In this document: positions 9,424 through 13,799 of the stretch, in pieces
Layout: every line of letters begins with the position of its first letter
Position numbering within the stretch: the stretch's first letter is position 1
From: an uncultured delta proteobacterium
Lineage (GTDB): Bacteria; Desulfobacterota; Binatia; UBA9968
Direction of reading: 5' to 3'
DNA: 64,000 nucleotides
Assembly: GCA_963804165.1 (NCBI GenBank)
Contig: CAWDPO010000001.1
Location: 32,001 to 96,000, forward strand
The notes under the pieces: generated by a model
Told to the model about the DNA's origin: nothing
Database searches by the model: none
What the model saw: the letters and a program-made list of their open reading frames with translations, nothing else
Made by a program: the position numbers and the translations under genes

Positions 9424-10140
9424 CTATTTTGCATCGTGAAAAATAATTCCCAGGGTGTATCGCTCGCCGGAATGCACGGTGCTGACACCGTGACGAAGGT
9501 TGGCGCGATAATAACCTTGCGCGCCGCGAACGGGTCGATGATGAACTGAAAAGATGACCGCATCGCCCTGCTCGGGAGTGAGCACTTCAACACGGGATTG
9601 CCGGCGTGGTTGTTGCTCGGCAAGGACAAATTCGCCGCCGTCAAAATCTTTGCCGCGCTGACTCAAGAAACAGGTCACCTGAAAAGGAAAGACGACTTCG
9701 CCGTATAAATCTTGATGCAGACAATTGAAGTCGTCGGTGCCATATTTGAGAAGCAAGGGCGTTGCACGCTTTTGACCGGCACGATGACATTGGTTAAGAA
9801 AGTCCGCAAACTTTTCAGGATAGCGAGGCGTTTTGCCGCCAAGGCGTTCGTTCCACTGGTTGGCAAGCGGCGCGAGCTGCGGATAAATCGCTGCTCTAAG
9901 CTGTTGCACGAGCTCGGGCAACGGATAATTGAAATACTTATACTCGCCCCGACCGAACGAATAGCGCGACATCTCGATCCGCGAGCGGAATCGATGATCC
10001 TCGGCGTAATAGCCGGCCATTTCTTTGCAGATATTCTTCGTGAGCACGCCAGGGATCAACACAAATCCGCGTTCGTCGAGCTGTGACCGCGAATGTTCCC
10101 AATCAATGTCGCGCTCACCCATTGTCGATGGGATTTTCAT
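9424..10140 (-). CDS. 2OG-Fe(II) oxygenase (DUF2086 / prolyl-4-hydroxylase-like)
   Basis: FGRGEYKYF, TPLLLKY, CLHQDLYGE (HxD), LRHGVS, RYTLGIIFHDA. Confidence 0.88.
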   Translation of the reverse strand: MKIPSTMGERDIDWEHSRSQLDERGFVLIPGVLTKNICKEMAGYYAEDHRFRSRIEMSRYSFGRGEYKYFNYPLPELVQQLRAAIYPQLAPLANQWNERLGGKTPRYPEKFADFLNQCHRAGQKRATPLLLKYGTDDFNCLHQDLYGEVVFPFQVTCFLSQRGKDFDGGEFVLAEQQPRRQSRVEVLTPEQGDAVIFSVHHRPVRGAQGYYRANLRHGVSTVHSGERYTLGIIFHDAK

Positions 10141-10152
10141 CGAAAATTTCTC

Positions 10153-10653
10153 TCAGCAATTCATTGATACAGTGGAACGGGTTTCGAGAGCCAGAAGCGC
10201 GGCTTTCGTCTCGACCCCGCCCGCGAAGCCGGTAAGCGATCCGTCCGCACCAACGACCCGATGACATGGCACGATGATGGACAAAGGATTCTTGCCGTTG
10301 GCAGCGCCGACAGCGCGAGCAGCCTTGGAAGAACCGATCGCCCTTGCGAGATCGATATAGCTCCTGGTTTGACCGAACGGTATTTCTCTCAAGGCCCGCC
10401 AGACTTTTTTCTGAAACTCGCTACCGTCGGGCTGAAGCGGAAGATCGAACTCGGTTCTTTCGCCGGAGAAATATTCCGTAAGTTGTCGCTCGGTCTCCAG
10501 CAATATTGAGTGCTGCGGATCCAACGTCCCAGTATCAAGCTTTATTCGGTTTGGGGACTCGCGTTCCCAGAGAACCGCGACCAAAGCGTTGGAGCTTGCG
10601 ACCAGTTTGAGCTTGCCGACGGGGGATTCGATCTCTTTGTAAAATAGCGTCAT
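10153..10653 (-). CDS. ogt: Methylated-DNA--protein-cysteine methyltransferase
   Basis: SPVGKL, FQKKVWRALREIPFGQTRSY, ARAVGAANGKNP, active-site PCHRV; AAGGAG SD. Confidence 0.93.
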   Translation of the reverse strand: MTLFYKEIESPVGKLKLVASSNALVAVLWERESPNRIKLDTGTLDPQHSILLETERQLTEYFSGERTEFDLPLQPDGSEFQKKVWRALREIPFGQTRSYIDLARAIGSSKAARAVGAANGKNPLSIIVPCHRVVGADGSLTGFAGGVETKAALLALETRSTVSMNC

Positions 10654-11587
10654 CGTTTTTCTCCTTTTTGCGTTTGGACAGACTTTGAGTGAATTCCTTC
10701 CACAGATAAGTTGCCGCGTAGGATCGCCAAGGTTTGATCGGTTCCAAATCCAGATCAGGATGAAGCAAAAGAGCGCGCTTAAGAATCAAATCCGTCTTGG
10801 GAAACGCATCCGTGTCACCGATGGCCCGAAGGCTGATATACTCAGCGGACCACGGGCCGAGACCCTTCGTGTCGAGCAGCGACTTGCGAAACGCTGCGGG
10901 ATCTTGAGATTCGGAAAGAGAAATAGCGCCGCTCAGCACGCGCCGGCTGAAGTCGCGTATCGCCTCGCGGCGCGCGATCGTGGTTCTAACCGCGCTCAGA
11001 TCGGCCTTCGCCAAAACGTCGGCTTCGGGGAACAATCGCATGTTTTCTCCCGACGATGGATGCGCGATCGCCACTCCATAGTTGTGGACGAGTTGGCCGA
11101 CAAGATTTGCCCTTTGCTGTGCCGAAACCAATTGCCCCAGGATCGAACAGATTGCCGTTTCGAACGGATCCCATCCTCGCGCCAGTCGTAAACCCGGATA
11201 GCGGTGGCAAAGACTTGCGAGCAGAGGAATTCGCCTAAAGCTCCTCTCGATCAACATGGGATCACAGTCCAAATCGAACATTTTTCTTACTCGCTGCACG
11301 ACATCTATTTTTATCTTGGGCTCATCAGGCGCGATTCGAATTTTGAGCTGCGGCACGCCGACCATCGTTTCTATGCGAACAATTCCAGTCTTGCCTTCGC
11401 TGTAAAACACTCGCTCGAACGACTTTGCCGTGACCCGTTCCAACCCGGGAATCAGATGCGTCTGGTAAAATCGAATGATCGTCTGCCAATCATACGGTGA
11501 CTTAAACGGCAGATTGATCTCGATGCCGTCCGTGTCACCGGTCTTGGAGCGCTTCGCTCGTCCTGTCCGTTGCAGTCTCAAGGCCAA
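10535..11587 (-). CDS. alkA: DNA-3-methyladenine glycosylase II (AlkA N-terminal plus HhH-GPD domains)
   Basis: LPFKSPYDW, PGLRLARGWDPFETAICSILGQLVS, HhH GLGPWSAEYI, DAFPKTD, PWRSYA. TTG start. The 3' end probably lies near 10650 (see findings). Confidence 0.88.
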   Translation of the reverse strand: MALRLQRTGRAKRSKTGDTDGIEINLPFKSPYDWQTIIRFYQTHLIPGLERVTAKSFERVFYSEGKTGIVRIETMVGVPQLKIRIAPDEPKIKIDVVQRVRKMFDLDCDPMLIERSFRRIPLLASLCHRYPGLRLARGWDPFETAICSILGQLVSAQQRANLVGQLVHNYGVAIAHPSSGENMRLFPEADVLAKADLSAVRTTIARREAIRDFSRRVLSGAISLSESQDPAAFRKSLLDTKGLGPWSAEYISLRAIGDTDAFPKTDLILKRALLLHPDLDLEPIKPWRSYAATYLWKEFTQSLSKRKKEKNDDAILQRDRIPRRQAQTGRKLQRFGRGSLGTRVPKPNKA

Positions 11588-11590
11588 TCT

Positions 11591-12400
11591 CTAGGCTGGC
11601 TGACAGATTTTGCACGGGCGCATGCCTGCTTGTCTCGCTTCCGTAGCGTCAGCGAAAATCAAGATGCGCGCCCGGTCGACGCGCGCAGCGGTCCGGCAAG
11701 TGACCCGACAATAGATTTTGGTTCCCTTGTGGCCCCAGACGACGTTGTCGGGAAGGCGCACAGCCGCCTCCGCCAGGACAAAACCTTCGCTCCGCAGCAA
11801 TTGCAACTTACGCGGGATGCCGCCGCCATATCCACCGATCCTGCCGCCTGAAGCGATCACACGATGGCACGGAACGTAGATCGGCACCGGATTGTTGTGC
11901 ATGGCATTGCCGACGGCCCGCGCTCCCTTCGGCGCTCCGGCTGCGGCGCCCAAAGCTTGGTAGCTGACCACAGCGCCGCGCGGGACTTCCTGGAGCTTAT
12001 GCAAAACTTTCTTTTGGAACGCACTGGCCACCAGAGTGAAGTCGACTTTCTGACGCAGCGCTTTTGCCTCTCCGGCCAGATAACGGCGAATCTCCTCGCT
12101 GACTTCATTGATCGTCCGTCGATCGTCGACGAGATCCAGTTCGACTCGAAGTTTTGCAATCGTAACTGCGAGGTCGTCACCGTCCAGCAAGTAATGATTG
12201 AGCACGATGCCGCGGCCCGTCATGGCCACGAGCAGATCACCCAACGGTGATTTTACAATGCCCACTGCCGCGTCAGGGCGCCGAACATGCTTCAGCGCAT
12301 GATCGACCCGACTGCGAGAGCGACGCAACAATGCGTCGATTCCATGTTCTTCGAATTCCCTGCCGATTGACCCGATAATTTTTTCGATTTTCATAAACAT
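11591..12400 (-). CDS. Fusion protein: N-terminal extension, O6-alkylguanine methyltransferase and C-terminal Ada metal-binding domain
   Basis: SPLGDLLVA...ARAVGNAMHNNPVPIYVPCHRV, then TKIYCRVTC...FADATEARQAGMRPCKICQP. The ATG overlaps the sigma stop (TGATG). Confidence 0.88.
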   Translation of the reverse strand: MFMKIEKIIGSIGREFEEHGIDALLRRSRSRVDHALKHVRRPDAAVGIVKSPLGDLLVAMTGRGIVLNHYLLDGDDLAVTIAKLRVELDLVDDRRTINEVSEEIRRYLAGEAKALRQKVDFTLVASAFQKKVLHKLQEVPRGAVVSYQALGAAAGAPKGARAVGNAMHNNPVPIYVPCHRVIASGGRIGGYGGGIPRKLQLLRSEGFVLAEAAVRLPDNVVWGHKGTKIYCRVTCRTAARVDRARILIFADATEARQAGMRPCKICQPA

Positions 12401-12919
12401 CACCACATTGACTTAATTTTTCTTATCGCCTGGGAAACATTCGCCCGCGCCCCCTGTTCTGAGCAGTCCATCGCGGCGGCTATCTCCGCGTAGTTCAGAC
12501 CGGCGAAGCAGCGCAGATGCAGCGCTTCGCGTTGTTTCGGCGGGAGTGAAGCCATCAGCTCGCGCATGCGCACAGCCGCGTAACCTTCGTTTTCACTAAA
12601 CCCACGATGGGCTTTGCCCGATCCGCTCCCCTGCCGGACTTTTCTCCTCAACGGCCACGATCACGCGCGCTCGGCGCGCACCGTCACGTGCCCGATTGCG
12701 GCATAAGTTGACCGCGATCGCGTACAGCCACGGCCTGATCTCGCTCTCCGGCTCAAGGCGCGGATAGGCGCGATACGCGCGCAGCCAGGTTTCTTGAAAC
12801 AAGTCCGCAGCGTCCGCGCCATTGCCTGTCAGGCGCAGCAAATAGCGCAGGATCTCCCGTTCGTGGCGTTGCATGATTTGCTCGAAGGGAAGCGGTATTT
12901 GCAACTTTTTGGGCGCCAT
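12400..12919 (-). CDS. ECF RNA polymerase sigma factor (one frameshift near 12600-12650)
   Basis: Region 2 (DAADLFQETWLRAY, WLYAIAVNLCRN) in ORF 12596-12919; region 4 (LPPKQREALHLRCFAGLNYAEIAAAM...ARANVSQAIRKI) in ORF 12400-12651; span 520 nt, one base off frame. Confidence 0.88.
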
Positions 12920-12925
12920 ATGTCT

Positions 12926-12956
12926 CTTAAAACCCCGGGGGCGGGCGATTGTGAAA
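12926..12956 (-). promoter_or_regulatory. Putative ECF promoter TTTCACAA-N12-GGGGTTTTAAG, likely leaderless transcript
   Basis: The motif ends 6 nt before the sigma ATG, there is no SD, and a matching copy lies on the opposite strand. Confidence 0.7.
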
Positions 12957-12996: not shown

Positions 12997-13027
12997 TTTC
13001 ACAAATCACGCCCGTTGGGGTTCTAAG
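12997..13027 (+). promoter_or_regulatory. Putative ECF promoter TTTCACAA-N12-GGGGTTCTAAG
   Basis: 18 of 19 fixed positions and the spacer length match the 12926-12956 copy; upstream of the flavin reductase gene. Confidence 0.7.
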
Positions 13028-13085: not shown

Positions 13086-13799
13086 ATGCATATCACCTGC
13101 GAACTCTTCGATTTTGTACTTTGGTACGCCCGTCGTGCTGATCAGCAGCGTCAACGAAGATGGCTCGTACAATCTGGCGCCGATGTCATCGGCGTTTTGG
13201 CTCGGCTGGCGCTCGATACTTGGTTTGGCCGGGGTATCCAAAACGCCGCAAAACATAAGACGCACTGGCGAGTGCGTTCTCAATCTGCCTTCGGTCGACC
13301 TCGTACAGTCGGTCAATCGCCTGGCCCGTACCACCGGCACGAATCCCGTTCCCGAGACAAAAGTGCGCCGTGGCTATCGCTATGAACCAGATAAGTTCGG
13401 AATCTCGGGGTTAACGCCTGTTCGATCCGAAACGGTTGTTGCACCCTGCGTCCTCGAATGTCCCGTGCAGCTCGAATCCAAGGTCGAAGCGATCCATAAC
13501 GTAGCGCAGGACGATGCAGCACAGCGCGGACGGATCGTCATTTTCGAAGTGCGGATTCCGCGGGTGCATCTCGATGCATCGATTTTAATGGACGGAGATC
13601 GCAACCGAATCGACCCGAACAAGTGGCGGCCGCTCATCATGAGCTTTCAGCAATTCTAGGGCTCGAGTCGCATCAGCTGCACGATTCGACACTGGGACAA
13701 ATTCCCGAACGTTTGTACCGGGGCCCCGACATAGAGCAGGCACGCCGCGCGTCAAGGGCCGAGCGATATAATGGAATCAAGCGTGACGTTGGATCGTAG
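13086..13799 (+). CDS. Flavin reductase family protein (DIM6/NTAB), two indels
   Basis: AAAGGAG SD then ATG 13086 (MHITCE), shift to SILYFGTPVVLISS...NLAPMSS...ECPVQLE...WRPLIMSFQQF, then shift to GLESHQLHDSTLGQIPERLYRGPD, ending at TAG 13799. Confidence 0.8.

Follow-up and report, generated by a model that had tools for sequence, protein, structure and literature searches.

A methyltransferase fused to an Ada-type zinc domain as a candidate anti-sigma factor of an ECF sigma factor gene in an uncultured delta proteobacterium

Introduction

What does a suicide DNA repair enzyme do when it is encoded directly after an ECF sigma factor, and what keeps such a sigma factor in check? The question is raised by a locus in the genome of an uncultured delta proteobacterium (GCA_963804165.1, contig CAWDPO010000001.1, positions 32,001 to 96,000). 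This whole stretch of 64,000 nucleotides is referred to as the window, and positions are given in its own numbering. An ECF sigma gene is followed here by a gene for a protein that contains the same two suicide methyl-acceptor modules as Escherichia coli Ada, Bacillus subtilis AdaA/AdaB and Caulobacter Cada2. E. coli-type Ada is reported from only about 17% of genomes (PMC7617703), and its residue C38 senses methylphosphotriesters (PMC4437013). The initial annotation of the locus read the window protein as a reordered Ada in which both acceptor sites are kept for sensing and an extra N-terminal helix is the sigma-binding element. The evidence presented below partly supports this overall interpretation, which we regard as largely right, though unproven.

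Architecture of the window protein

The gene is located on the minus strand at 11591-12406 and specifies 271 aa when read from a GTG; the likely start is either an ATG at 12400 that shares bases with the stop codon of the sigma gene (TGATG), or an alternative ATG at 12394, and homologues are mostly 266-271 aa long, the partner protein of locus L001 being 93% identical. The protein comprises (i) an N-terminal extension (residues 5-45, 12272-12394, minus strand), with an amphipathic helix at residues ~20-39 (12290-12349), (ii) an Ogt-type O6-methylguanine methyltransferase (Methyltransf_1N plus DNA_binding_1, 11783-12259, minus strand), with C180 in a PCHR motif at 11861-11872, and (iii) an Ada-type zinc domain, the methylphosphotriester acceptor (11597-11746, minus strand), with C233 and C237 in CRVTC (11696-11710), C265 and C268 in PCKIC (11603-11617), and no AraC HTH. 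Pfam placed Methyltransf_1N at residues 50-122 (just under the cut-off), DNA_binding_1 at 129-208 (PF01035, 105 bits) and Ada_Zn_binding at 221-270, and detected no HTH anywhere in the protein. The order proposed earlier, about 40 extra residues, then the methyltransferase with PCHR, then the CRVTC/PCKIC zinc domain, was thus confirmed by the ORF, the Pfam matches and the motif coordinates. The same applies to the proposed correspondence of the four zinc-domain cysteines, which align with C38/C42/C69/C72 of E. coli N-Ada (PDB 1adn, E 7.6e-8).

These four cysteines were invariant in both sets of aligned homologues (69/69 and 89/89), and the PCHR cysteine was kept in 69/69 and 88/89; in the first set, residues 149, 163 and 207 were also invariant, along with the PCHR motif. 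The AlphaFold2 model (mean pLDDT 91) combines N-terminal helices with an AGT fold and a small zinc domain, and resembles AGT structures with an E-value of about 1e-11. The protein therefore has the two-domain fold and the PCHR site of Ogt/MGMT-type alkyltransferases, and is predicted to perform methyl transfer. Homologues were abundant: 615 scored, and among the 120 listed almost every one had both Pfam domains at the same length, so an assembly artefact was rejected as the source of the unusual domain order.

Operon neighbours and the split sigma gene

On the same strand, the ECF sigma gene (12400-12919) and the overlapping partner gene are followed by genes for an alkA-type 3-methyladenine DNA glycosylase (10535-11587), a plain Ogt methyltransferase lacking the extension (10153-10653) and a 2OG-Fe(II) oxygenase of family PF09859 (Oxygenase-NA; 9424-10140) with a predicted role in alkylation repair. 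A flavin-reductase-like gene (PF01613; 13048-13659, likely start 13086), possibly a regulon member, lies on the plus strand. The initial annotation had noted the separate Ogt, which was indeed found, and had called the repair role of the fusion redundant. That view holds for the repair of O6-methylguanine, but not for the zinc domain, which is the only one of its kind found in this 81%-complete genome: neither methyltransferase nor Ada-zinc genes were identified beyond those of the window locus.

The sigma gene is split into a sigma2 frame (12596-12919) and a sigma4 frame (12400-12651) by an extra base in the three-base run 12617-12619, as judged against all four aligned relatives; the initial annotation does not mention it. 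The flavin-reductase-like gene likewise has one extra base near 13104 relative to locus L003, and in the assemblies of relatives other operon genes show single frameshifts. Across the window genome, a frame change was seen at 2 of 37 matched places, the sigma gene being one of them. Among the sequencing runs, no contig of the same strain was found to span the frameshift site; one of ~90% identity (depth 2.4) is one base shorter there, in agreement with the relatives and compatible with either an error or a mutation in the window. We consider the frameshift probably an assembly error rather than a real mutation. Broken sigma copies do nevertheless occur, since locus L005 (L005:275-715) has lost part of sigma2 through a separate deletion inside its sigma gene.

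Association of the architecture with ECF sigma genes

When 251 genomes of the window's class were searched with Pfam for the Ada zinc domain, the matches fell into two score classes. The 54 listed matches of the weak, C-terminal-type class, all from outside the window genome, were fetched, while four partial matches resembling cut canonical domains and 83 weaker matches beyond those listed were set aside. All 54 proved to be methyltransferase-zinc genes directly after (+1) an orthologous ECF gene. Members of a divergent second subtype followed a different ECF gene in 14 of 15 loci, and 13 of 13 loci of a further set, whose genomes are partly shared with another set counted here, also lay beside an ECF gene; as the genomes are kin, such counts show a pattern but overstate independence. 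The restriction of this architecture to ECF neighbourhoods, which had been set as a test of the earlier interpretation, thus held almost without exception. At least six representatives seen without gene context (among them P0149, P0159, P0198, P0228, P0230 and P0251) have a full-looking methyltransferase and zinc domain and no extension.

The association was also found in the opposite direction. All 19 metagenome sigmas of the clade with at least 600 nt of downstream sequence have a methyltransferase at +1, and all 15 with at least 1100 nt also have the zinc domain; nine further ones are cut by contig ends. No sigma gene was present in the fetched flanks of other methyltransferase loci (0/24 and 0/9) or of canonical Ada loci (0/39).

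In Actinobacteria, sampled through six plasmid-collection records, the pair of a sigma and a methyltransferase-zinc gene was found on Streptomyces, Rubrobacter and Nonomuraea records. The Arthrobacter and Rhodococcus records carry a sigma gene and an extended methyltransferase with no fused zinc domain, and Rhodococcus encodes the Ada zinc domain in a gene of its own, two places further along. Among 85 sigmas placed in a tree, which has a midpoint root only and gives no order of events, 49 methyltransferase-linked ones formed a clade (100/92) that holds the orthologues of the window sigma, the sigmas of the zinc-type forms described below and the Rhodococcus plasmid sigma. The Streptomyces, Nonomuraea, Rubrobacter and L021 sigmas fell outside it on long branches, and the sigmas paired with the architecture are therefore not one clade.

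Several loci had features of their own. Loci of the second subtype (L253-L266) have a shorter helix, a sigma from a different ECF clade and no TTCAC promoter, and a PF09859-like oxygenase gene is often next. On the plasmid of Streptomyces sp. NBC_01022 (L242), the sigma, methyltransferase-zinc and ogt genes come after metK, metF and a SARP regulator gene; this plasmid has three Ada-zinc matches, and the arrangement may possibly provide self-protection beside methyl-donor metabolism. Three zinc-type loci of family f4 (L123, L148 and L152) encode a small PF01035-only protein after the pair, and in L123 and L148 a SnoaL-like gene is also found downstream.

Promoter motif and predicted regulon

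The motif TCAC-N15/16-G(G/T)GT(T/C) precedes the sigma gene in 67 of 69 loci; with the spacing fixed at 15 bases, it was found in 45 of 69, compared with a mean of 0.3 in shuffled sequences. In the window, a predicted autoregulatory promoter, TTCAC-N15-GGGTT (12931-12954, minus strand), is the best-scoring site of the genome, and its -10 core lies about 11 nt before the sigma ATG. The second-best site (12999-13022, plus strand) is divergent and faces the flavin-reductase-like gene; degenerate copies of it are present in L001, L002, L003 and L005. The third-best match of the genome (G000:C34:31064, minus strand; L297) has no clear gene behind it.

A matrix trained on sigma-upstream sites only was then applied to unlinked genes at a score threshold of 16. 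Sites scoring at least 16 were found before the unlinked plain ogt gene in 13 of 20 genomes of family f6 (9 of 15 when the five genomes seen beforehand were omitted) and before unlinked 2OG oxygenase genes in 7 of 30. No such site was found among 1640 shuffles or ahead of any of 32 methyltransferase genes from other families that served as controls, a further gene having been dropped for its short flank. These matrix results provide the strongest indication of an alkylation-repair regulon headed by the sigma, with its own and unlinked repair promoters, and we consider this a strong inference from the sequence data.

A scan of family f6 with the exact pattern gave 49 matches in 41 genomes, compared with 11 for the reversed pattern. 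Of these, 29 were located at the sigma operon, one at ogt and one at a 2OG oxygenase gene, and one more, at a contig end, has the sequence of the 2OG-oxygenase site. The remainder fell in unrelated or coding sequence, about half of them expected by chance, and the exact-pattern matches were not counted as regulon members. No conserved alkA/ogt operon was recognised downstream of the sigma pair among 57 same-strand ORFs of f4 and f6 loci, as picked by a crude ORF procedure in GC-rich DNA. In two genomes of one genus (G328 and G374; L316, L334, L332 and L333), strong promoter matches lie before a gene that, on reading by eye, resembles a thioesterase, and in both genomes also before a membrane-like ORF of ~65 aa.

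Comparison with catalogued ECF groups

Two published groups resemble the window locus. In ECF122, an O6-methylguanine methyltransferase is encoded at +1, all members are from Actinobacteria, no putative anti-sigma is given and the promoter consensus is CTCAC/CGTCTAC (Casas-Pastor et al. 2021, PMC7826278 supplement); a review describes its mechanism as uncharacterised (PMC8999054). In ECF203, also restricted to Actinobacteria, a methyltransferase is at +1 with Ada_Zn_binding nearby, a TetR protein is the proposed regulator, and neither a conserved promoter nor an anti-sigma is reported (PMC7826278 supplement). The main text of PMC7826278 mentions neither group.

The window locus shares the +1 methyltransferase and the TCAC of the -35 element with ECF122. 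It differs in the -10 element, which is CGTCTAC in ECF122 and G(G/T)GT(T/C) in the window clade, and in the hosts, since the window host's close relatives carry the labels Candidatus Binatia or delta proteobacteria. The partner also differs: it is unfused in ECF122, whereas the window partner has a fused Ada zinc domain and its relatives have a zinc anti-sigma domain. In the tree, the 100/92 grouping joins the window sigma clade with the Rhodococcus plasmid sigma, whose promoter matches the ECF122 consensus. With ECF203, the window locus has in common the methyltransferase at +1 and the Ada_Zn_binding domain nearby, but no TetR or MFS gene was detected among the eight window-neighbourhood ORFs scanned. 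The gene pairing is already catalogued as ECF122/ECF203; its parts are known and its probable mechanism is undescribed.

The N-terminal extension and anti-sigma domains

The AlphaFold2 model resolved the extension of the window protein into a short helix and a 20-residue helix (residues ~20-39), at a pLDDT of 49-78 compared with at least 90 elsewhere. The initial annotation set the element at residues 1-40. Only the long helix and the RRP that follows it are conserved, the first ~15 residues varying widely outside the closest relatives, and the conserved element is better placed at residues ~20-44. Each of the 49 aligned zinc-free pairs has a long amphipathic helix ahead of the methyltransferase. 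Positions 27, 34 and 38 of the helix hold hydrophobic residues throughout the 69 aligned rows.

Some relatives have a longer extension with an HxxxCxxC motif: 18 of the 54 listed class members, and 23 of the 150 best cluster representatives. A zf-HC2 match above the cut-off was obtained for L019 and for five of nine representatives picked for HxxxCxxC. The profile of these zinc-type extensions matches ChrR residues 12-81, last helix included (E 0.0014), and their model consists of four helices. The ten best Foldseek rows for the zinc-type domain were all class I anti-sigma chains (MucA, ChrR, RsiW and RslA), none of them reaching E 0.001, and the best VIA-align hit, with a Z of 6.0, was tied with an unrelated protein. 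By its HxxxCxxC motif, its four helices and its likeness to solved domains, the extension of the zinc-type relatives is a class I anti-sigma domain (zf-HC2, ChrR-like). Class I (zinc) anti-sigmas such as ChrR, RsiW, RslA and MucA are encoded, like the window partner, at +1 of an ECF gene (PMC7406223). They share HxxxCxxC and the four-helix model with the relatives of the window protein, whose conserved helix aligns with the last helix of ChrR. The window protein itself differs from them, as its sensor domain is a DNA-repair enzyme and it has one long helix and no zinc knuckle.

The window extension showed neither HxxxCxxC nor a Pfam match to zf-HC2, and with one short and one long helix it lacks the three-helix bundle plus helix 4 of class I. 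Its long helix is placed like helix 4 of the relatives, just before the first methyltransferase strand. The helices of the zinc-free and zinc-type profiles align, but the match is weak, with a score of 12.8 and a probability of 1.9%, and 40 column shuffles reached 11.3 at most, so the assignment rests on position and pattern. On these grounds the window helix is likely, though not proven, to be a retained helix 4, the part with which anti-sigma factors of class I bind sigma2 in solved complexes (PMC7406223). A zinc anti-sigma domain at the same site in relatives thus indirectly supports the idea of a putative sigma-binding element.

Two rearranged loci agree with the helix-4 assignment. In G083 (L020/L069, G083:C15), a deletion fused the first codons of the sigma gene in frame to the end of the helix, with the methyltransferase and zinc domain following; the promoter was kept, and the sigma body and the zinc knuckle/anti-sigma part were lost together. 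On a plasmid of Streptomyces sp. NBC_00212 (L247:2350-3696), one ORF contains sigma4, a degraded methyltransferase and the Ada zinc domain; sigma2 was not detected in it, and a plain ogt is next. This fusion was found separately from a search for longer fused forms, in which none scored, a result that is weak evidence.

The helix may, alternatively, be a vestige or linker, with the +1 protein a mere member of a regulon whose sigma is controlled by other means (an unlinked regulator, proteolysis or activity that is constitutively low). In favour of this, the window lineage has neither helices 1-3 nor the zinc knuckle, profile homology to helix 4 is weak, and the helix is the least conserved part of the protein (mean identity 35%, compared with 48% for the methyltransferase). 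A mirror-tree analysis gave a lower correlation with sigma2 divergence for the helix (r 0.81) than for the methyltransferase (0.94), so there is no special co-evolution signal. The published suggestion of TetR control in ECF203 and the lack of a putative anti-sigma for ECF122 (PMC7826278 supplement) also favour control of another kind. Against this, the helix keeps its hydrophobic face in 49 of 49 zinc-free pairs, whereas plain Ogts that share the promoter do not lie beside a sigma gene. Moreover, an autoregulated sigma needs a brake, and G083 lost its sigma and anti-sigma part at the same time. We consider a vestigial helix unlikely.

Relation to Ada

The Ada systems and the window locus involve the same kinds of target gene (alkA, 2OG oxygenase and methyltransferases), but the order of domains in Ada is Zn-HTH-methyltransferase, whereas in the window protein it is reversed, with the zinc domain C-terminal and no AraC HTH. 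R71 of the Ada A-box is replaced by I267; the position is occupied by Ile, Leu or Val in 63 of 69 fusions and by Arg in all 37 canonical motifs counted. Of 89 homologues, 74 retain an Arg aligned with Ada R67, and the equivalent of R45 is ambiguous in the alignment. The window protein was rejected as an Ada orthologue. Of 19 genomes from the window's genus, 14 contain a single Ada-zinc gene, which belongs to a canonical Ada or Ada-AlkA in five and to the methyltransferase-zinc system in nine; three of the 54 listed class genomes have both this system and a canonical-type match. The sigma/methyltransferase-zinc system thus mostly stands in place of Ada, although the exclusion is not strict.

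Ada and Cada2 are DNA-binding activators once methylated (PMC4437013, PMC10957082), whereas the window protein is predicted to act via a dedicated sigma. Positive control of the Ada kind could still be imagined, in which the methylated protein binds the sigma, or promoter-near DNA through an electrostatic switch in its zinc domain, and activates transcription. The invariant zinc cysteines and the frequent R67-aligned Arg would suit such a switch, methylation of C38 raises the DNA affinity of Ada about a hundredfold (PMC4437013), and Cada2 provides a precedent for another methylation-activated route. This is opposed by the missing AraC HTH, by the loss of Arg at the R71 position and by the inhibitor-type domain of the relatives. 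Furthermore, in the 67 promoters compared, the 60 nt preceding the -35 element contain no conserved box (information of at most 0.24 bits beyond 4 nt). Activation in the manner of Ada is accordingly quite improbable.

Proposed mechanism

The reading we prefer, to which we assign a probability of about 0.6 as a whole chain, is that methylation consumes an anti-sigma partner and so would release the sigma to transcribe repair genes. Its starting point is the gene order: sigma and partner are adjacent and overlapping, with alkA, ogt and 2OG oxygenase genes downstream. The sigma very probably reads TTCAC-N15/16-G(G/T)GT(T/C) before itself and before unlinked repair genes. The helix at residues ~20-39, as a retained helix 4, would dock on sigma2; helices 1-3 and the zinc knuckle, kept in some relatives, are absent in the window lineage. 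In the last and weakest step, methylation of C180 may destabilise the partner and free the sigma, while C233 would be an added second input, from methylphosphotriesters. Expression of the induced operon would also supply new, unmethylated partner and so finally shut the response off.

C180 in the PCHR motif is the likelier trigger than C233, because PCHR is the sole acceptor common to all forms and its alkylation destabilises AGTs. ECF122-type partners have no fused zinc domain at all, which leaves the earlier idea of sensing at both sites a conjecture, and the Tm of SsOGT falls from 80 to 60 C on alkylation (PMC4605297).

An anti-sigma that responds to another signal, either thiol oxidation or alkylation of its zinc site, as in RsrA, or lesion binding that pulls the protein off the sigma, seems very doubtful: the relatives' zinc domains do resemble those of ChrR and RslA, and some Streptomyces partners combine a degraded methyltransferase (about 40 compared with about 100 bits) with an intact zinc domain, but 36 of the 54 listed class members lack the zinc anti-sigma site, as do ECF122-type partners, PCHR and residues 149, 163 and 207 never vary in the 69 aligned homologues, and the predicted regulon is one of alkylation repair.

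Within the preferred reading of a methylation-consumed anti-sigma, we lean slightly towards a broader proposal. The suicide repair enzyme itself would be the anti-sigma, counting lesions by its own consumption and releasing the ECF sigma; it would be interchangeable with Ada in one genus, a single stripped helix would suffice to inhibit, and proteins of this kind would be the missing anti-sigmas of ECF122 and ECF203. In a literature search conducted largely outside subscription journals, no published study of an alkyltransferase acting as an anti-sigma factor was found. The accessible portions of an alkyltransferase review (PMC10779285), a review of SOS-independent responses (PMC7617703) and the Cada2 paper (PMC10957082) do not mention a sigma-based route.

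Significance

If the proposal is true, the sigma has its brake in the repair enzyme at +1, and the irreversible methylation of that enzyme is the signal, which would answer how ECF122-type sigmas are controlled. This would contrast with Ada, AdaA and Cada2, which become DNA-binding activators upon methylation. For experiments, the reading names two Cys residues and a 20-residue helix that can be mutated, together with target genes and a promoter consensus, and comparable loci are available in cultured, non-pathogenic Actinobacteria, on the Streptomyces, Rubrobacter, Arthrobacter and Rhodococcus antarcticus records. The locus would then exemplify an additional way of organising the adaptive response of bacteria to alkylation.
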